From sequence record OQ721909: a DNA stretch of 64,000 nt. One strand, given 5' to 3'. Both the position numbers and the translations under genes were made by a program. This document shows positions 1,760-10,742 of this stretch, in pieces; position 1 is the first letter of the stretch, and every line of letters begins with the position of its first letter. This DNA is from Escherichia phage vB_VIPECOOM01. The notes below the pieces were generated by a model. It worked only from the letters and a program-made list of their open reading frames with translations, was not told the origin of the DNA and made no database searches.

Positions 1760-2154
1760 CGTGATTCCTTAACAAATTTCATAATTTCATTAAATTCATG
1801 CATATCAAGTTTAAGCTGGTGTTCCTTTTTAATCTTTTTACACTGAGCTTTCCATTCGCGTACGCGTTTACGATAATGTCTTCCTTGATACCAGTATCCT
1901 ACCCAATTTACAGGTACTAATAAAAGTGGAACTATTAATGGAAGAATTAGCATTAACACAAGTATTTCGCCAGAATCAATATCAGTCATAACATCTAAAA
2001 CACCTCCAATAATCAATAGAATCACAAATGATACAGCTACCACAGGACCTATTAATATATCAGTAGGAATTAGCCGGCGCTTTAATTCATACTTCACAGG
2101 TTTACTTGGAAGGTATAGTGATGGCTTTGACATATTCTCTACATTCCTTAACAA
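1741..2154 (-). CDS. Hypothetical membrane protein (e.4 position)
   Basis: 137 aa, strongly hydrophobic core LIGPVVAVSFVILLIIGGVLDV, basic C-terminus. Confidence 0.55.
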   Translation of the reverse strand: MLRNVENMSKPSLYLPSKPVKYELKRRLIPTDILIGPVVAVSFVILLIIGGVLDVMTDIDSGEILVLMLILPLIVPLLLVPVNWVGYWYQGRHYRKRVREWKAQCKKIKKEHQLKLDMHEFNEIMKFVKESRCKSQN

Positions 2155-2710
2155 ATTTTTCTAATAATAAATCGCTTTCAAAATTGGGATTTTCCACGAA
2201 TTTATCAAAAAGATCATCAACAATAGTCAAGATATTCTTTTTACTAAGAATACGCTTATTTTCATATTTTGTTTCAGAGTCAACTATAAGAGTAAAGAAA
2301 TATTTCTTTCCCTGAAATTTTACCGTAGTATCAATATAAAATAAATTTGACTTTTGTAAATTACGTCTAAACCCCGAGTCACTTAAACTATAAACGCCAA
2401 GATAATCATAATCGTCGTTTAAATAACAAACTGTCCATTCAGGAGAAATGAAATCAGTAAATTCAACATCAAAATCGCACGTCAATGAATGAATTGATTC
2501 AATACTGCTAATAAGTATTCCAGGACGTATTAAAGACTTTTTACCTCTATAAAATCTTCCAGAAAGACTTTCGTCAGTTTCATACGAAGACCCCCAATAG
2601 TAATTACGTCCTTCTGCCATACGTTTAAGAGCATTCAGTAATTGGTCTGGAACATCAACCTGTCTTTGGAACTCTTCAAACATTGAATTGAAATCATTTT
2701 GCATTCTCAT
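2102..2710 (-). CDS. Hypothetical protein (e.5 position)
   Basis: 202 aa ORF on the gene-dense minus strand; no motif recognised. Confidence 0.5.
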   Translation of the reverse strand: MRMQNDFNSMFEEFQRQVDVPDQLLNALKRMAEGRNYYWGSSYETDESLSGRFYRGKKSLIRPGILISSIESIHSLTCDFDVEFTDFISPEWTVCYLNDDYDYLGVYSLSDSGFRRNLQKSNLFYIDTTVKFQGKKYFFTLIVDSETKYENKRILSKKNILTIVDDLFDKFVENPNFESDLLLEKFVKECREYVKAITIPSK

Positions 2711-2730
2711 TCCTATTTACTCCAAGTAAT

Positions 2731-2746
2731 AGGGGCCGAAGCCCCT
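2731..2746 (-). other. GC-rich stem-loop AGGGGC-CGAA-GCCCCT between genes
   Basis: Perfect 6-bp stem with tetraloop; identical 16-mer recurs at 44978-44993. Confidence 0.45.
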
Positions 2747-2751
2747 TATCA

Positions 2752-3345
2752 TTATTTCAGAGAATTAATATATTCCTGGACATCAGCAGAAGTGGTTTCA
2801 ACCCCAGAAATATTACCGTTAAAGGTTTCAACTCGAGCAAGAGTATCTTCAATATCAACCTTAGTTAGCGCTGCGATTTCAACTACATCATCGGCAGTAC
2901 TAATTCCAAGGGCATTTGCCGCACGAGTTTCACGAATATATTCCAATTTAACTGCAAGTTCTTGGCGAGCATCATCTAACTCAACTACTTTCTTGGCGAT
3001 TTCAATTCGCATTTCAGCATAACCGTCAGCTTTAGTAGTCAACTGCTCAGCTGTTCGACGATATAGCAAACCGAGTTTAGCGTGCATTGTTACATCTTGA
3101 CCTTCGGAAAGAAGTTTACGAATTTCACGCTCTTTTGATTCGGCCTGTCGATTCTTTTCGACAATAAGTTCACGAATACGTTTTTCTTCATTAATAGATT
3201 TAACAGAAGCAGTTTTTAGATCTTTAATTTTATCAAGCAGTTTTGCTGCCGCAGCAGTATACTGTTCTTCAACAGATAGATTTTTAGCCATAGCAGAACC
3301 AAGTTTAGTGCGAATAAACTCAACAATTTTCTTCAGTGTGTTCAT
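2752..3345 (-). CDS. Coiled-coil protein, possibly PspA/IM30-like (e.6 position)
   Basis: 197 aa, charged heptad-like repeats throughout ([34 protein letters not shown]); family assignment is a guess. Confidence 0.5.
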
Positions 3346-3388: not shown

Positions 3389-3919
3389 TTATATCCCATT
3401 ATTTGAGAGATGTAAACTATTTTTAATTTTACAAATTCGTTCAGCTTCATCGATAGCAGCATTAATAATGCTTTTAGCTATAGGAGTACTAATACTAGTA
3501 GCTTTTACACTTAACACGATTTCTTTATCTTTACCAGGCCAACCCCATGATTTTTCACCGTGAGTGCCTTTAATTACAGCAGACACCTCAAGTGAGCGTC
3601 CATTATCATATGTTTTTACATTAACAACCCAAGGGTCACTTTTCTCAATCGGTTTCTCAACCGGTTTATCCCAGTAAATATTAAGAATGCGTGGGACATC
3701 AAATTTGGCAGGACAAATCTTAACCGTAAGACCTTCGCTTTCTAGCCAATTAATAAGAGGGCGTTCATACAGGCGACGATGTGGGCTTGGGATTCGACAA
3801 GCCTTATGTCCGTTGCTTGCGGCTTCACTAAGCTGTTCTAATACCTGCTTTTGCATTATTGATAAGATACCATCAAAAGATTTTTCGGAAATTTCATTCA
3901 GTTCGGTATAAAGAGACAT
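3389..3919 (-). CDS. Hypothetical protein (e.7 position)
   Basis: 176 aa, SD gaggaa before ATG, preceded by a PeSL-type promoter. Confidence 0.6.
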   Translation of the reverse strand: MSLYTELNEISEKSFDGILSIMQKQVLEQLSEAASNGHKACRIPSPHRRLYERPLINWLESEGLTVKICPAKFDVPRILNIYWDKPVEKPIEKSDPWVVNVKTYDNGRSLEVSAVIKGTHGEKSWGWPGKDKEIVLSVKATSISTPIAKSIINAAIDEAERICKIKNSLHLSNNGI

Positions 3920-4445: not shown

Positions 4446-4470
4446 AAAAAGCCCTATCATTTAGATAGGG
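4446..4470 (-). terminator. Rho-independent terminator after 4479-5042 gene
   Basis: Stem ccctatc/gataggg with loop attta, followed on the minus strand by CTTTTTGG. Confidence 0.6.
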
Positions 4471-4478
4471 ATTTAAAA

Positions 4479-5042
4479 TTATTTATCTAGTTTAGTTATT
4501 ATAGCTTCTGCGGCAGCTTTTAGCTTAGATGCGGTGTTAATACGATTTTTAATTTCAGTATACGCATCGCCAAGAACATCAAGGCTATCAGAATAAACAC
4601 TTACACTATTGCGTTCGCTATTTGAAATAGAACCTTTAGTTTTACGATCAAAATCGGTGTACACGTCTTGAAGATCACGGGCTGCCTTCTTTGCATCATC
4701 CAATGCGTCAAGAGCTTTATTCAAAGCATTAACGTATTTTTTAGTGTCGAACATATTCTTAGAAATTTTAACAGGTGCGCGTTCAGGAGTAGCTAATGCA
4801 GATTTAGGAACCTGAGCGCCAGATGCCAATTTCTTAGAAATTTTGAAAAACGCTTTATTGAATTTATTTTCTTGACTCATCGTAAAAGAACTATTATCGA
4901 TGTTGTACATTTCAATAGCTTTAGCTTTCCACTTAAGAAAATCGCCGCGGTCTTTTGGGTCCAAGTGGAAGAATACTTTAGTAAGATCTGCTTCAGATGG
5001 TAATTTTGCTGCTTCGGTTAAAAATTCGGCATAGGTTTTCAT
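4479..5042 (-). CDS. Internal-protein-like protein with N-terminal capsid-targeting sequence
   Basis: N-terminus MKTYAEFLTEAA matches the T4 internal protein CTS pattern (MKTYQEFIAE) plus an L-x-E prohead protease site; lysine-rich body; bracketed by terminators. Confidence 0.6.
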   Translation of the reverse strand: MKTYAEFLTEAAKLPSEADLTKVFFHLDPKDRGDFLKWKAKAIEMYNIDNSSFTMSQENKFNKAFFKISKKLASGAQVPKSALATPERAPVKISKNMFDTKKYVNALNKALDALDDAKKAARDLQDVYTDFDRKTKGSISNSERNSVSVYSDSLDVLGDAYTEIKNRINTASKLKAAAEAIITKLDK

Positions 5043-5131: not shown

Positions 5132-5160
5132 TAAAAAGCCCCGACCGAAAGGTCGGGGCT
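5132..5160 (-). terminator. Rho-independent terminator
   Basis: Stem agccccgacc/ggtcggggct with GAAA loop, followed by UUUUU on the minus strand. Confidence 0.75.
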
Positions 5161-5167
5161 AAGAATG

Positions 5168-5641
5168 TTATTTGATTTGTTTAGCAGACCAAATGCGGTC
5201 TTTAATAATTTTTTGGATGTCTTCAACATACTCTAGGTCATGAGCATGTGGGTTATCTTTGAAACTATAAGCACGAGCTAGTTTTTGGCCTTCAGTTTTG
5301 ATTACTAAAAGCTCTTTAAGGATAGCTTCATATTTAGCGATAATTCCTTTAACAATATTTTTTTCTTGTGCAACTTTAGGATCTGCTTTAGGAGCAGGTT
5401 TACCCGAAGCCTTTGCAAAAGCAGCGCCAGTAGCAACTAAACTTTTCCAGGCCATACTAACTGCATTTCCTGTAAATCCTTCTGCTTTCATGTCGCGGGC
5501 AAATTGGAATCGTGATTCGTCAGAAGCATCTTTATAGGAATATTTACCCGCTGCAATGGCTGCTTTTGCGACAGCTTGAATTTCGGTGCTAGATGCTTCA
5601 TTTAACACCGCTTCATTTAAAAATTGAGCATATGATTTCAT
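5168..5641 (-). CDS. Internal-protein-like protein with N-terminal capsid-targeting sequence
   Basis: N-terminus MKSYAQFLNEAV (CTS-like, L-N-E cleavage motif); own late promoter upstream and terminator downstream. Confidence 0.6.
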   Translation of the reverse strand: MKSYAQFLNEAVLNEASSTEIQAVAKAAIAAGKYSYKDASDESRFQFARDMKAEGFTGNAVSMAWKSLVATGAAFAKASGKPAPKADPKVAQEKNIVKGIIAKYEAILKELLVIKTEGQKLARAYSFKDNPHAHDLEYVEDIQKIIKDRIWSAKQIK

Positions 5642-5680
5642 CTTATTTCCTGTTTTAATTCGTGATTTAATATACTACTA

Positions 5681-5688
5681 TATTTATA
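5681..5688 (-). promoter_or_regulatory. T4 late promoter TATAAATA (minus strand)
   Basis: Plus tatttata at 5681-5688, about 40 nt upstream of the 5641 start. Confidence 0.6.
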
Positions 5689-5690
5689 CT

Positions 5691-5718
5691 AAAAAGCCCC
5701 AACCTTTCGGTCGGGGCT
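5691..5718 (-). terminator. Rho-independent terminator closing the tRNA/small-RNA transcription unit
   Basis: Stem agccccaacc/ggtcggggct (one G-U), loop TTTC, then UUUUU on minus strand. Confidence 0.7.
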
Positions 5719-5725
5719 AAGCCTT

Positions 5726-6030
5726 GCGGCAACCTTGTCGGGGTTCCACCTGCTAAGGCAAGTGTTTGTACGAAACGCCGGGATTCGAACCCGGTTATTA
5801 AGCAGTTGACGCTACTCAATATTTTTAAAAGGCCATATCTCGACCATATCCGAACGTTCCGTCAAAAACGCTACTCGGCTTACGGCAAAGATATTTCCTC
5901 GAATCGATAATTCGGTGCGCCGTTTCTGCTGTGATGTAAGGGGATATTAACAAATCGTAAAGATTTATTAAGACCAGTCCTTACGCAGGGAACATCAGTC
6001 CGACGACTTACCGGTAGCGACCCGGTTTCT
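5726..6030 (-). ncRNA. ORF-free structured region, candidate stable small RNA(s) co-transcribed with the tRNAs
   Basis: No ORF of 60 aa or more on either strand over about 300 bp despite dense coding elsewhere; tRNA-like T-arm CCGGG-TTCGAAT-CCCGG (5778-5794) with pairing acceptor-like strands CGGAACG/CGTTTCG (5855-5861 / 5771-5777) but no canonical D or anticodon arm; sits between tRNA operon and terminator. T4 has species 1/2 stable RNAs near its tRNAs. Confidence 0.35.
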
Positions 6031-6380
6031 TAATATTCTTTTAAAGCATCAATTTGTTCACGGCGTTTACGCCATAAATCAATTGCTTCATACGCAGATT
6101 CAGCATTTCGAATTGGACGGCATTTATATAAAGACTTATGATTTTGATATTGTGTAGATAACGGAATTTTATCTAAAAGGTCTTTACGTTCAAAATATTC
6201 GTAACCATCTAAACCAAATGAACGATTTTTGAGAAATTGCCAATGACCGTATTCGTTTTCGACATAAACATAATCCGCGTGTTGATAAAGCAAATTAATT
6301 ACACGTTCAGAAATAACAGTGTCATTGTGATTAAAATAAAATGTTAAATCATGAACTACTAAATAAACATTACCTTTCAT
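6030..6380 (-). CDS. Hypothetical protein embedded in the tRNA operon
   Basis: 116 aa, SD gaggaaaat before ATG, starts 17 nt after tRNA-Arg on same strand. Confidence 0.55.
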   Translation of the reverse strand: MKGNVYLVVHDLTFYFNHNDTVISERVINLLYQHADYVYVENEYGHWQFLKNRSFGLDGYEYFERKDLLDKIPLSTQYQNHKSLYKCRPIRNAESAYEAIDLWRKRREQIDALKEY

Positions 6381-6396
6381 ATTTTCCTCACTTAAT

Positions 6397-6472
6397 TGGT
6401 CGAGGCAGTAGGGATCGAACCTACGACCTAGGACTTAGAAGGTCCTTGCTCTTCCTTCTGAGCTATGCCCCG
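6397..6472 (-). tRNA. tRNA-Arg (anticodon TCT)
   Basis: Hand-folded cloverleaf, anticodon loop CTTCTAA, T-loop GGTTCGATCC, CCA encoded. Confidence 0.8.
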
Positions 6473-6476
6473 TAAT

Positions 6477-6552
6477 TGGGGTGACCGATGGGAGTCGAAC
6501 CCATGACTACGAGAATCACAATCTCGAGTTCTACCAACTGAACTACGGCCAC
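6477..6552 (-). tRNA. tRNA-His (anticodon GTG)
   Basis: 76 nt cloverleaf; anticodon arm CGAGA-TTGTGAT-TCTCG; closely resembles E. coli tRNA-His from memory. Confidence 0.7.
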
Positions 6553-6666
6553 ATTAATACCTACTCCAACAATCAAGATGTCTTCACACGAAATTAAGAG
6601 AAGAGTGATCAGTTCAACCCCGATAATCGCGTCAAGTAGATATTAATGTGACAATTGTCACAAATT

Positions 6667-6741
6667 TGGCGGACGTGATAGGATTCGAACCTATAACCAA
6701 TCGCTTAACAGGCGATCGCTCTGCCATTGAGCTACACATCC
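6667..6741 (-). tRNA. tRNA-Asn (anticodon GTT)
   Basis: 75 nt; anticodon loop CTGTTAA; T-arm ATAGG-TTCGAAT-CCTAT; CCA encoded. Confidence 0.7.
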
Positions 6742-6745
6742 AAAT

Positions 6746-6832
6746 TGGTGGGGAGTGATGGAGTCGAACCACCCGAGTCGCAATGACAATGGATTTACAG
6801 TCCACACCGCTACCTCTACGGGATAACTCCCC
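6746..6832 (-). tRNA. tRNA-Tyr (anticodon GTA), long variable arm
   Basis: 87 nt; anticodon loop CTGTAAA; long extra arm; CCA encoded. Confidence 0.7.
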
Positions 6833-6845
6833 TTAATTCTTAATT

Positions 6846-6920
6846 TGGTGGCCCTGGGTGGAATTGAACCACCATCTGGCGATTATGAGTCGCTTGCTTG
6901 AACCTTCCAGCTACAGGGCC
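6846..6920 (-). tRNA. tRNA with CAT anticodon, most likely Ile (lysidine type); Met not excluded
   Basis: 75 nt; anticodon arm AGCGA-CTCATAA-TCGCC resembles E. coli tRNA-Ile2 from memory; T4 tRNA-Ile also carries CAU. Confidence 0.65.
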
Positions 6921-6929
6921 AAATTTTTC

Positions 6930-7412
6930 TTATTTTATGTAATATTTATTTAAAAACTTTCTAGCTTGAGTATGGCTAACATTTATAGCGTTTGCATAAT
7001 TTTTAATAAAACCTCGTTCATCCATATTAAAATTTTCTAATATTTTTAATCGTCTAATTATCTCATCTTGGCTTAAGGTACTTGCATTATTTTTAGAAAT
7101 TTTTTCTAAAGACTGCACTGAGTGTTTTCGACCATTAAAATTAAAATTTTTAGGTTTTGGAGGAAATCTATCATTTAGTCTCGCATCTTTTGTATTTTGA
7201 TTATTAGTTGCGCAATATATGTTATTTAATGAGTATGGTCCTTTATCACCAAAACGACACATACAGTATTCATGACCCTTTCTTCCACGCTTATCATAAT
7301 TTCCCGTTGATTTCCACCAATTCAACCACTCATCAAAAGTTAAATTCCATTCAATGTTTCTACGTATAGCAGAATTCCGCTGAGAAATATATTTTGCATA
7401 ATCTTCTTTCAT
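6930..7412 (-). mobile_element. Free-standing HNH-like (His-Me finger) homing endonuclease gene inserted between tRNA genes
   Basis: 160 aa; EWNLTFDEW plus CxC and GDKGPYSLNNIYCATNNQN motif resembling degenerate phage HNH nucleases; basic C-terminal HTH-like tail; interrupts the tRNA cluster. Confidence 0.5.
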
Positions 7413-7459
7413 CGCAAATTTCTCTACTTATTGCATACACTAAGCTAAATCAGCAAAAC

Positions 7460-7549
7460 TGGCGGAGGCGATAGGATTTGAACCTATGAGTCGCCGGAGC
7501 GACTGCCGGTTTTCAAGACCGGTGCATTAAACCACTCTGCCACGCCTCC
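7460..7549 (-). tRNA. tRNA-Ser (anticodon TGA), long variable arm
   Basis: 90 nt; anticodon arm CCGGT-CTTGAAA-ACCGG; CCA encoded. Confidence 0.8.
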
Positions 7550-7551
7550 AG

Positions 7552-7625
7552 TCTCCGCGGCAGGATTTGAACCTGCGACATTCTGCTCCCAAAGCAGACG
7601 CTCTACCAAACTGAGCTACACGGAG
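7552..7625 (-). tRNA. tRNA-Pro (anticodon TGG), CCA not encoded
   Basis: Anticodon arm TCTGC-TTTGGGA-GCAGA; abuts tRNA-Ser with 2-nt spacer, as in the T4 Pro-Ser dimeric precursor. Confidence 0.8.
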
Positions 7626-7635
7626 TAAATTAAAT

Positions 7636-7709
<74 letters not shown>

Positions 7710-7714
7710 AAATT

Positions 7715-7801
7715 TGGTGCGAGAAGTGGGACTCGAACCCACAAGGAAATCATTCCGCAGCATTTTAAGTGCTGTGCCTTTACCAATTTGACCATTCTCG
7801 C
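7715..7801 (-). tRNA. tRNA-Leu (anticodon TAA), long variable arm
   Basis: 87 nt; anticodon arm CAGCA-CTTAAAA-TGCTG; CCA encoded. Confidence 0.8.
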
Positions 7802-7802
7802 G

Positions 7803-7875
7803 CTGGGAATAAAGGACTCGAACCTTTGCATCTAGCAGTCAAAGTGCTATGCCTTACCAACTTGGCTAATTCCCA
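7803..7875 (-). tRNA. tRNA-Gln (anticodon TTG), CCA not encoded
   Basis: Anticodon arm TAGCA-CTTTGAC-TGCTA; 1-nt spacer to tRNA-Leu as in the T4 Gln-Leu dimer. Confidence 0.8.
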
Positions 7876-7944: not shown

Positions 7945-7969
7945 ATAATAACAAATAATTCTTAAAGCA
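7945..7969 (-). promoter_or_regulatory. MotA-dependent middle promoter candidate for the tRNA operon
   Basis: Minus strand TTGCTTTA (MotA box) then 12 nt then TATTAT -10. Confidence 0.45.
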
Positions 7970-8486
7970 AATTAAACATTTTAACGGTCGGCAAAACAAT
8001 TTCTTCTTCTATATAAGAGTATTTAACACTCTCAACTACACGCAAAAAATCATAATCATAATACTCAGAAGCATTACCTAAAATATTAATAAGTCCTTCA
8101 AGCACTTTATTACCATTCACAAAAAATAAGTCAAATACACGTTCTTCATCTTCTTCAGATTTATTACCAAGATCAACTTCTATGCGAAAGACCTTTTTAA
8201 TGAATTCTGGATAAAGCTGGTCTGAGAACAGTCCTTCAACCAAGTATTCATAAATAAAAAGAGATTGCTCGCTGAACAAACCATTACCGCAATAGCGCTC
8301 AATTTTAGTACTAGAATATCTGCTTTTAAATTTCTTTAAAAGATACTGAAATTGTAAGATTTCATGCTCTTCTACGCCAAACAGTGTTTTAGTTTTATAG
8401 TTGTCACCATCATTTTCCCAGGTAGTGACATCAATTACGTAACCCTGCGGAATTGTAGTACCCAAACAAATATTCATTTTCACCAC
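7962..8486 (-). CDS. Hypothetical protein
   Basis: 174 aa ORF in operon with 8480-8770 and 8773-9171; acidic, no motif recognised. Confidence 0.55.
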   Translation of the reverse strand: MVKMNICLGTTIPQGYVIDVTTWENDGDNYKTKTLFGVEEHEILQFQYLLKKFKSRYSSTKIERYCGNGLFSEQSLFIYEYLVEGLFSDQLYPEFIKKVFRIEVDLGNKSEEDEERVFDLFFVNGNKVLEGLINILGNASEYYDYDFLRVVESVKYSYIEEEIVLPTVKMFNLL

Positions 8487-8770
8487 GCTACATTAATGTA
8501 AGTATATTTAATACATTCAAGACCCAAAGGATTCTTGAAAATATCATATTCAAGAGGACCTTTTTCTGTTTCAATAAAGAAATCAAAATTTACTGTATTA
8601 AATTTACGGTCTTCCTTTACTAATTTAACTTGAGAAGATGAACGGTCAATGTAAACATTTTCAACTTCAAAACATGTTAAAATGCCATAATCATCAATCA
8701 AGGCTTTAGCCGCGTCTTGATCATATTTATATCCATTTTCAATGGATGATACTTTCGCATAAAGAATCAT
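8480..8770 (-). CDS. Hypothetical protein
   Basis: 96 aa, overlapping stops and starts with neighbours. Confidence 0.5.
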   Translation of the reverse strand: MILYAKVSSIENGYKYDQDAAKALIDDYGILTCFEVENVYIDRSSSQVKLVKEDRKFNTVNFDFFIETEKGPLEYDIFKNPLGLECIKYTYINVAW

Positions 8771-9414: not shown

Positions 9415-9648
9415 TTATTTTTTACGAAAAATTGATTTATTTTCTGCTGCCCATTTTTCAATAACTGCAGCAGGACCAGTAACAACAATTTTATCACCGT
9501 AATCTTCTGCGGCGAGTTGACCGAAATTATCTAATGCATCACGAAGAACTCCATGAGGCATTTCACCCATTTTATCTTTCTTGCCGGTGTAAATAAACTC
9601 AACTTTTACATCAGAAGATTCAGCGATAAACTCTTTGAAAGTTTTCAT
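9415..9648 (-). CDS. Internal protein I-like small protein with capsid-targeting sequence
   Basis: From second Met: MKTFKEFIAESS (CTS-like, I-A-E cleavage motif); 77 aa; position beside 57B matches T4 ipI. Confidence 0.6.
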   Translation of the reverse strand: MKTFKEFIAESSDVKVEFIYTGKKDKMGEMPHGVLRDALDNFGQLAAEDYGDKIVVTGPAAVIEKWAAENKSIFRKK

Positions 9649-9677
9649 TTTAGTTTCCATTCGATTGTTTTGTTTTG

Positions 9678-10057: not shown

Positions 10058-10742
<685 letters not shown>

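Follow-up and report, generated by a model that had tools for sequence, protein, structure and literature searches.

A conserved hypothetical gene of T4-like phages placed between a tRNA cluster and two stable RNA genes in Escherichia phage vB_VIPECOOM01

What is a protein-coding gene doing between the last tRNA of a T-even phage and a block of structured RNA, and is its product tied to the RNAs on either side of it? The question is raised by a 116-aa open reading frame (ORF) in a 64,000-nucleotide stretch of Escherichia phage vB_VIPECOOM01 (OM01; OQ721909), referred to here as the window. A first-pass annotation had placed the ORF inside the tRNA operon and suggested that such embedded genes often serve tRNA processing or RNA repair. 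Here, we have examined the boundaries and probable transcription of the ORF, its conservation and distribution in related phages, and the roles that its product might play.

The ORF and its transcription unit

Ten tRNA genes were identified on the minus strand by ARAGORN, the last of which is a tRNA-Arg(UCU) (Table 1). The ORF follows on the same strand, opening with ATG and closing with a TAA stop codon at 6032..6030. Since 16 nt, AUUAAGUGAGGAAAAU, separate the CCA end of the tRNA from the ATG, translation would begin at the 17th nucleotide after tRNA-Arg, as had been claimed. The good Shine-Dalgarno sequence also noted at that stage is a GAGG at 6389..6386, 5 nt 5′ of the ATG, and base pairing is predicted for no part of the leader when the tRNA-Arg/ORF junction is folded. 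T2, RB69 and a metagenomic relative (locus L007) share both the Shine-Dalgarno sequence and its distance from the ATG.

Table 1. Features of the tRNA cluster and of the genes that follow it, by position in the window
Feature	Coordinates	Strand	Basis or remark
MotA-type middle-promoter-like element just upstream of tRNA-Gln, presumed start of the unit	7945..7971	minus	conserved in T4 and T2
Remaining tRNA cluster: Gln, Leu, Gly, Pro, Ser; trna.1-homologous ORF; Met, Tyr, Asn, His	6477..7875	minus	
ORF homologous to T2L trna.1, between the Ser and Met tRNAs	6930..7412	minus	
tRNA-Arg(UCU), last tRNA of the cluster, T2/RB69-type allele, unlike T4 tRNA-Arg	6397..6472	minus	ARAGORN
16-nt leader from tRNA-Arg to ATG, carrying the GAGG Shine-Dalgarno sequence	6381..6396	minus	conserved in T2, RB69 and L007
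116-aa protein gene, stop codon included	6030..6380	minus	ORF list and family match
rnaD homologue (T4 species 2 stable RNA)	5914..6029	minus	alignment to T4, start at about 6033/6029
rnaC homologue (T4 species 1 stable RNA)	5769..5907	minus	137 of 139 bases identical to T4
Intrinsic terminator closing the unit: 10-bp stem with 7 GC pairs, U run	5695..5718	minus	

On its other side, the ORF ends where structured RNA begins, in agreement with the initial description: the stop codon directly abuts a block homologous to the T4 stable RNA genes rnaD and rnaC, which folds far better than shuffled controls (z = -4.8). No Rfam family covers the rnaC/rnaD block.

Several features suggest that the tRNAs, the ORF and the stable RNAs are transcribed together. 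The promoter-like element upstream of tRNA-Gln (7971..7945) consists of a MotA-box-like TTTGCTTTA, a 12-nt spacer and TATTAT, and we infer its role from T4 literature quoted in PMC2330249. Neither a terminator-like hairpin nor a late-promoter TATAAATA was found on the minus strand between 7875 and 5720, and tRNA-Arg and the ORF in particular are not separated by any terminator or promoter-like sequence. The late-promoter motif that comes next, at 5688..5681, belongs to the gene downstream. For T4, it is presumed that transcripts started from the middle promoter extend through the whole cluster and terminate beyond species I RNA (PMC2330249, which cites Broida and Abelson), so that the segB mRNA forms part of the tRNA precursor; the primary transcript of the cluster includes segB as well as the species I and II RNAs (PMC2330249). 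By homology with T4, there is strong reason to place the ORF inside a primary transcript of approximately 2.2 kb together with the tRNAs. The conserved promoter, the lack of an internal terminator and the terminator after rnaC thus favour the proposed co-transcription of a protein gene within the tRNA operon.

The expected course of expression can be outlined on this basis. Transcription would start upstream of tRNA-Gln, from the conserved middle promoter that depends on MotA, cover the ten tRNAs, the ORF and the rnaD and rnaC homologues, and end at the 5718..5695 terminator, yielding a precursor of about 2.2 kb. Ribosomes would then bind the ORF separately, at the GAGG that lies in the 16-nt leader behind tRNA-Arg, on a message bounded by tRNA 3′ processing on one side and by structured stable RNAs on the other.

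Identity, conservation and structure of the protein

The gene is already known under several names. Over bases 5600-7000, a region with matches in more than 1,100 phage records, the window shows 100% identity to Escherichia phage vB_VIPECOOM03 (OQ721911, genus Tequatrovirus), in whose record the corresponding coordinates are higher by 64,000. An unchanged copy of the protein is encoded there by VIPECOOM03_00133 (annotated as hypothetical, phrog_3355). The same gene is called RB69ORF150c in RB69 and bas37_0245 in phage Bas37. It is also the "trna.2 ORF" of T2L (EMBL AJ880101) described by Brok-Volchanskaya et al. in 2008 (PMC2330249), whose primers #24 and #25 match both ends of the ORF; the T2L gene occupies the same place, directly after tRNA-Arg and before species II RNA, and no material difference separates the two. 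In that study, the T2L tRNA region was reported to contain "two ORFs of unknown function", trna.1 and trna.2 (PMC2330249). Literature searches for RB69ORF150c and phrog_3355 returned nothing. The T2L name clashes with that of an unrelated T4 gene, trna.2, located upstream of the T4 cluster; by position and size, the counterpart of the T4 gene in the window is at 8480..8770.

That the ORF is a genuine protein gene is clear from its conservation. A tblastn search of the phage collection retrieved 424 records. In each of them the match spans at least 80% of the protein, with identities that range between approximately 30% and 100%, and a distant relative used as query retrieved the same 424 records. 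The ORF product shares 96.6% amino-acid identity with its counterpart in T2, 96% with bas37_0245 and 69% with that of RB69. Residues 1-115 match phrog_3355 (a profile of 117 positions) with E = 1e-54. Nei-Gojobori dN/dS values of 0.06 against T2 (dS 0.27) and 0.13 against RB69 (dS 1.5) indicate purifying selection, and the conservation in relatives that the first-pass annotation had proposed to check was therefore found. A chance ORF or a dead pseudogene, among RNA genes that alone matter, would sit well with the dispensability of the gene. However, synonymous change against RB69 is saturated at these low dN/dS values, every one of the 424 carriers covers at least 80% of the protein even at about 30% identity in other genera, and the Shine-Dalgarno sequence and its spacing are conserved; the selection analysis effectively refutes such an account, to which we attach negligible probability.

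The ORF product has a mass of 14.2 kDa, a pI of 6.5 and a tyrosine content of 10%. The early remark that it carries no recognisable motif was borne out: neither the protein nor ten of its relatives gave a match above threshold in Pfam, NCBIfam or PADLOC, no catalytic motif was recognised, and phrog_3355 was the sole match of these eleven sequences in PHROGs. Sub-threshold matches to Pfam DUF2654 were seen in five family members over approximately 25 residues, from helix 1 into strand 3, the best of which scored 18.2 bits (E = 0.0029) against a gathering threshold of 25 bits. These cover a third of the DUF2654 model, the ORF product itself gives no such match, and the function of DUF2654 is not known. 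A word-indexed search of 5.8 billion proteins found seven clusters, all of close relatives, and an exhaustive profile search of 1.84 billion representatives gave eight matches, including a repetitive 650-aa protein that was taken as spurious. All family members with an identifiable source come from T4-like phages, and the ORF has no paralogue in the window or in the T4 region.

Structure prediction, which had been proposed as a check, produced a model but no characterised fold relative. The better AlphaFold2 model has a pLDDT of 73.6 and a pTM of 0.67, with residues 73-82 below 50. The modelled chain starts with two strands, which are followed by a helix and then by a conserved hairpin (N42-x-x-G-H-W-x-F-x-K-x-R53); its middle part is poorly defined, and it ends in a long basic helix. 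Foldseek searches of BFVD matched only uncharacterised proteins of T4-like phages, as distant as Vibrio phage nt-1, and no relative among solved structures was detected by sequence or by fold; since the model is of moderate confidence, a fold relationship could be missed. As modelled, this is a small protein of the alpha/beta type, without a detectable relative outside T4-like phages.

Distribution among T4-like phages and the alternative cassettes

T4 has eight tRNAs together with rnaC and rnaD, and it lacks the ORF; its rnaD lies one base after tRNA-Arg. Sequences similar to rnaC/rnaD are present in 758 phage records compared with 424 for the ORF, and approximately 45% of rnaC/rnaD carriers are without it. 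A simple insertion or deletion relative to T4 was considered and rejected, as the tRNA-Arg alleles of the two types differ throughout. For the same reason, the whole segment is regarded as an alternative cassette whose right-hand edge lies at the 5′ end of rnaD. The T4 segment contains Thr, Ile, segB and Arg, whereas the T2-type segment contains trna.1, Met, Tyr, Asn, His (in some phages), Arg and the ORF, and homology between the two resumes exactly at GAAACCGGG, the start of rnaD. A mosaic locus, L007, has segB directly upstream of the RB69-type tRNA-Arg, which is then followed by the ORF.

Outside these cassettes, the gene keeps its general location while its immediate neighbours change. 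In Tequatrovirus, Mosigvirus, Winklervirus and Mosugukvirus and in phage EcS1, the homologues share the strand of the tRNAs and are placed either among them or at the 3′ limit of their cluster. This holds for OM01, T2, RB69 and the loci L007, L008, L010 and L011, as well as for Serratia phage LC53 (L012), Pectobacterium phage PM2 (L013) and Escherichia phage EcS1 (L014). The number of tRNAs differs considerably, from two in RB69 to nine in T2 and ten in the OM01 stretch. The adjacency to tRNA-Arg, whose conservation in relatives had been proposed as a check, is found in Tequatrovirus and Mosigvirus but not in EcS1 and PM2, where the gene lies away from tRNA-Arg, and a strict linkage of the two genes was rejected accordingly. 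Likewise, no rnaD or rnaC follows the homologue outside Tequatrovirus and Mosigvirus. The persistent location in the tRNA cluster is compatible with a functional link as well as with simple synteny; the latter would be enough to explain it, given that these genomes have their tRNA locus at a fixed place.

The patchy presence of the ORF at the edge of a swappable cassette would be explained if it were itself a small homing-endonuclease gene, had decayed from such a gene or served it as an accessory. Close relatives differ in carrying it, it lies at the exact right-hand boundary where the homology of the T2-type and T4-type cassettes breaks, and the tRNA region is rich in homing endonucleases, with segB in T4 and L007 (PMC13096335) and a possible HNH-like ORF (a weak match) at 6930..7412. 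In spite of this setting, we consider it very unlikely that the gene is selfish in any of these ways. A Pfam scan of the ORF product detected no nuclease domain of the GIY-YIG, HNH, LAGLIDADG, His-Cys or PD-(D/E)xK type, and motifs of the GIY-YIG, HNH, LAGLIDADG and PD-(D/E)xK types were likewise not detected; on inspection by eye, G3/Y6 and Y13 are not spaced as in a GIY-YIG motif. At 116 aa, the protein is too small to include a DNA-binding module, and its strong purifying selection and stable position across genera are unlike the usual life cycle of homing endonucleases. In addition, the ORF is the loser rather than the driver in T4 × T2L crosses: the T2L cassette is lost to gene conversion driven by SegB, and the ORF is kept in only 0.4% of the progeny, its loss in the other 99.6% in this only published cross being attributed to SegB (PMC2330249).

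Possible roles and comparison with known systems

A role in tRNA processing or RNA repair, as first suggested, was not supported. None of the catalytic domains expected of such a protein (Pnkp, RNA ligases, 2H/LigT, Tpt1, nucleotidyltransferases or RNases) was found in the ORF product, which has no domain match above threshold and no relative among solved structures. Nor is the ORF required wherever a tRNA cluster is present, given its absence from T4 and from approximately 45% of rnaC/rnaD carriers (424 versus 758 records) and the neutrality of insertions in its Bas37 orthologue. As for the premise of that suggestion, the documented protein genes in T-even tRNA clusters are homing endonucleases of the segB type, not repair enzymes (PMC2330249; PMC13096335).

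The evidence on dispensability comes from Bas37, which is KarlGJung (MZ501089) and whose coordinates match exactly. In the HIDEN-SEQ transposon screen, bas37_0245 carried insertions at 33 of 38 sites and was classified as "Non-essential" (bioRxiv 10.1101/2025.11.20.689424, Extended Data Table 7). Its log2 fold changes were -0.20, -0.30 and -0.02, none of them significant, in three of the six comparisons of K-12 with clinical strains, which involved few hosts, none chosen for tRNA-targeting defences (10.1101/2025.11.20.689424). The gene does not appear in the main text of that preprint.

A looser connection with RNA can also be considered, in which the protein acts on the phage tRNAs, on the species 1 and 2 RNAs or on their precursor; it might then be a chaperone, a processing aid or a shield against host anticodon nucleases. 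In at least five genera, with a tRNA content of 2 to approximately 14 genes, homologues stay within the tRNA cluster or close it, and in Tequatrovirus and Mosigvirus the gene always follows one tRNA-Arg allele across a conserved junction of 16-19 nt. Furthermore, most of the invariant residues carry aromatic or basic side chains (W47, K51, R53, Y62, F63, W103 and R107), and the C-terminal helix is basic (WRKRRE). On the other hand, no similarity to an RNA-processing, RNA-repair or RNA-binding family was found, T4 and many relatives have tRNAs and rnaC/rnaD without the gene, LC53 and PM2 leave no gap of rnaD/rnaC size after it, and in EcS1 and PM2 tRNA-Arg is not adjacent to it. Together with the neutral insertions in Bas37 and the sufficiency of synteny as an explanation of the conserved position, these observations make a tRNA-linked role unlikely, and such belief as we give it derives from the persistent location. 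We regard as distinctly improbable the more specific proposal of a dedicated partner of the tRNA cluster, whether an RNA-binding protein, an anticodon-nuclease inhibitor or a co-worker of the species 1 and 2 RNAs. A partner of this kind would explain why the gene is retained in the tRNA clusters of several T4-like genera despite their changing tRNA content, and, if real, it would be a protein without a recognisable fold relative.

Enzymes of the colicin D/E5 type and Septu attack tRNA classes that include the neighbouring Arg, His, Asn and Tyr tRNAs, and the surroundings of the ORF are rich in anti-defence genes. Acb1 is encoded at 10058..10513 (PF23474, E = 8e-60), 3.7 kb from the ORF; the segment 9418..9651 is a 95%-identical copy of bas37_0260, described as an McrBC inhibitor (preprint 10.1101/2025.11.20.689424); and genes close by carry annotations as internal proteins of the head or virion. 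Based on the neighbourhood, the internal-protein genes and the defence-targeted tRNA classes, the likeliest role of the product is that of an accessory factor of the middle expression class, directed at the host or its defences, rather than that of a tRNA-processing or RNA-repair enzyme, which we infer weakly from this genomic context and from the general pattern of small non-essential T-even genes.

One particular form of defence-directed function was suggested by a borderline match. When the family profile was compared with the PDB, positions 21-112 matched 5c6c_A (a cyclic-nucleotide-binding domain of cGMP-dependent protein kinase 2, PKG2) with E = 0.0056, and a degenerate cyclic-nucleotide-binding (CNB-like) domain acting as a sponge for immune signalling nucleotides would find a natural setting 3.7 kb from Acb1, a degrader of the CBASS signal. 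However, 5c6c_A was the only PDB chain matched at E values up to 10, so that no other cyclic-nucleotide-binding chain was recovered, and with the single ORF protein as query its E value was 1.2. Pfam cNMP_binding was matched by no family member, and the FGELA segment of the kinase aligns with unrelated residues of the family consensus. The ORF family alignment also lacks what we take to be the signature of the phosphate-binding cassette (G-E ... R-T/S-A), and the model predicts four to five strands and no eight-stranded barrel. The match is thus taken as due to chance, with no CNB domain assigned to the family, and we consider a nucleotide sponge highly improbable.

On balance, it seems probable that the ORF is a dispensable accessory gene restricted to T4-like phages and carried on the tRNA operon, with a host- or defence-directed function weakly favoured for its product. 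Such an explanation plays down the persistence of the gene in tRNA clusters across genera, which could reflect a functional tie to the tRNAs. From one point of view, the ORF is one more conserved hypothetical T-even gene, already listed in the annotation of hundreds of genomes, recorded for T2L as early as 2008 and dispensable in Bas37; what interest remains comes from the orphan fold and from a cistron that, unusually, has RNA genes as its neighbours on both sides. As an orphan family with counter-defence neighbours and defence-relevant tRNAs, it is a reasonable, unprioritised candidate for anti-defence screens. The locus is also a clean case of a protein cistron between RNA genes, with a tRNA 16 nt upstream and a stable RNA starting from the stop codon, and these flanks make the unit a convenient system for studying how tRNA processing and translation share a precursor.

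The ORF may be compared with several known systems. T4 Pnk, Rnl1/Rnl2, Acb1/57B (2H-like fold), Cef and Stp have in common with it the general theme of phage and tRNA and an early or middle expression class, but no sequence or fold similarity to any of them was detected, and none is encoded at the position of the ORF. T4 segB is closer in arrangement, being a protein gene among tRNA genes in a non-essential region that is expressed in the tRNA precursor transcript from a middle promoter (PMC2330249), as the ORF probably is. SegB, however, is a 221-aa protein with a GIY-YIG domain and demonstrated DNA cleavage and homing, whereas the ORF product is half that size, has no nuclease motif and is excluded rather than spread in T4 × T2L crosses. 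In the thrU-tyrU-glyT-thrT-tufB and tyrT-tpr operons of E. coli, tRNAs come first and are followed in the same transcript by a protein cistron with its own ribosome-binding site. The architecture of these operons resembles that of the ORF unit, while their products (EF-Tu and the protamine-like Tpr) are unrelated to the ORF product. Unlike the protein cistrons of such bacterial tRNA operons, the ORF is followed by two structured stable RNAs before the terminator and thus has RNA genes on both sides.

The ORF stop codon and the adjoining stable RNAs

Mapped onto the window through the alignment, the 5′ end annotated for T4 rnaD (species 2 stable RNA) lands at position 6033, on the final sense codon and the stop codon of the ORF, the 116-aa protein gene preceding the rnaD/rnaC homologues (junction 6029..6033). 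If the stable RNA were cut at the equivalent position, the ORF message would be stripped of its stop codon. In L010, a Mosigvirus-like contig carrying an ORF homologue in or at the 3′ end of its tRNA cluster, the stable-RNA region 3′ of the ORF is the equivalent of the rnaD/rnaC block of the window; there ARAGORN predicts a 'tRNA-Stop (tta)' of 94 nt (3515..3608), and it makes no similar call on the window. The prediction suggests that the L010 stable RNA contains a tRNA-like structure.

Features of the window in the neighbourhood of the ORF
Feature	Coordinates	Strand	Context or match
phrog_2280 paralogue pair	4479..5042 and 5168..5641	-	both match phrog_2280
Terminator-like hairpins	5160..5137 and 4470..4452		at the phrog_2280 pair
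Late-promoter motif TATAAATA	5688..5681		ahead of phrog_2280 gene 5168..5641
Spacer, 114 nt	6553..6666		tRNA-Asn to tRNA-His
160-aa ORF, T2L 'trna.1 ORF' homologue (phrog_16521)	6930..7412	-	between tRNA-Ser and tRNA-Met
T4-type MotA middle-promoter element	7945..7971	-	upstream of tRNA-Gln
bas37_0260 homologue	9418..9651	-	product 95% identical
Acb1 anti-CBASS phosphodiesterase	10058..10513	-	PF23474, E = 7.8e-60

Flanking genes and their Bas37 counterparts

The phrog_2280 paralogues downstream of the stable RNAs begin with MKTYAEFLTEA and MKSYAQFLNEA, N-termini that resemble the sequence by which T4 internal proteins are targeted to the capsid. The gene at 4479..5042 has a 98% identical orthologue, bas37_0243, in phage Bas37. 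According to the preprint on the transposon screen HIDEN-SEQ (10.1101/2025.11.20.689424), bas37_0243 had insertions at 1/48 sites and was called 'Essential', while its paralogue bas37_0244 was non-essential; the 'Essential' call is surprising given the internal-protein-like look of the gene. The preprint also describes bas37_0260 as a capsid-targeted McrBC inhibitor and reports strong depletion of the hypothetical genes bas37_0239 and bas37_0240 (log2FC -3.6 and -6.5, respectively) in K-12 vs CFT073. The depletion makes these two genes, which belong to the e.5/e.6 region of Bas37, candidates for host-specific factors, and they lie a few kilobases away from the ORF; judging by position, their counterparts are probably located at about 2102..3345 of the window. 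The gene labelled 'RNA ligase' in the source record is, from its domain match, clearly identifiable as Acb1.

Middle-promoter element, trna.1 homologue and a possible insertion in the tRNA cluster

The middle-promoter element reaches into the 3′ end of the gene before it (7962..8486) and is conserved: T4, T2 and the window differ in it by only a few substitutions. Within the cluster, the product of the trna.1 homologue gives a weak HNH-endonuclease signal (E = 0.012), and inspection by eye of the stretch CMCRFGDKG...N...N places R at the expected HNH histidine position; this product is thus possibly a degenerate homing endonuclease. The spacer beside tRNA-His contains a perfect palindrome (TGTGACAATTGTCACA), and tRNA-His together with this spacer looks like a separate insertion, since T2, in contrast to the window, lacks both.
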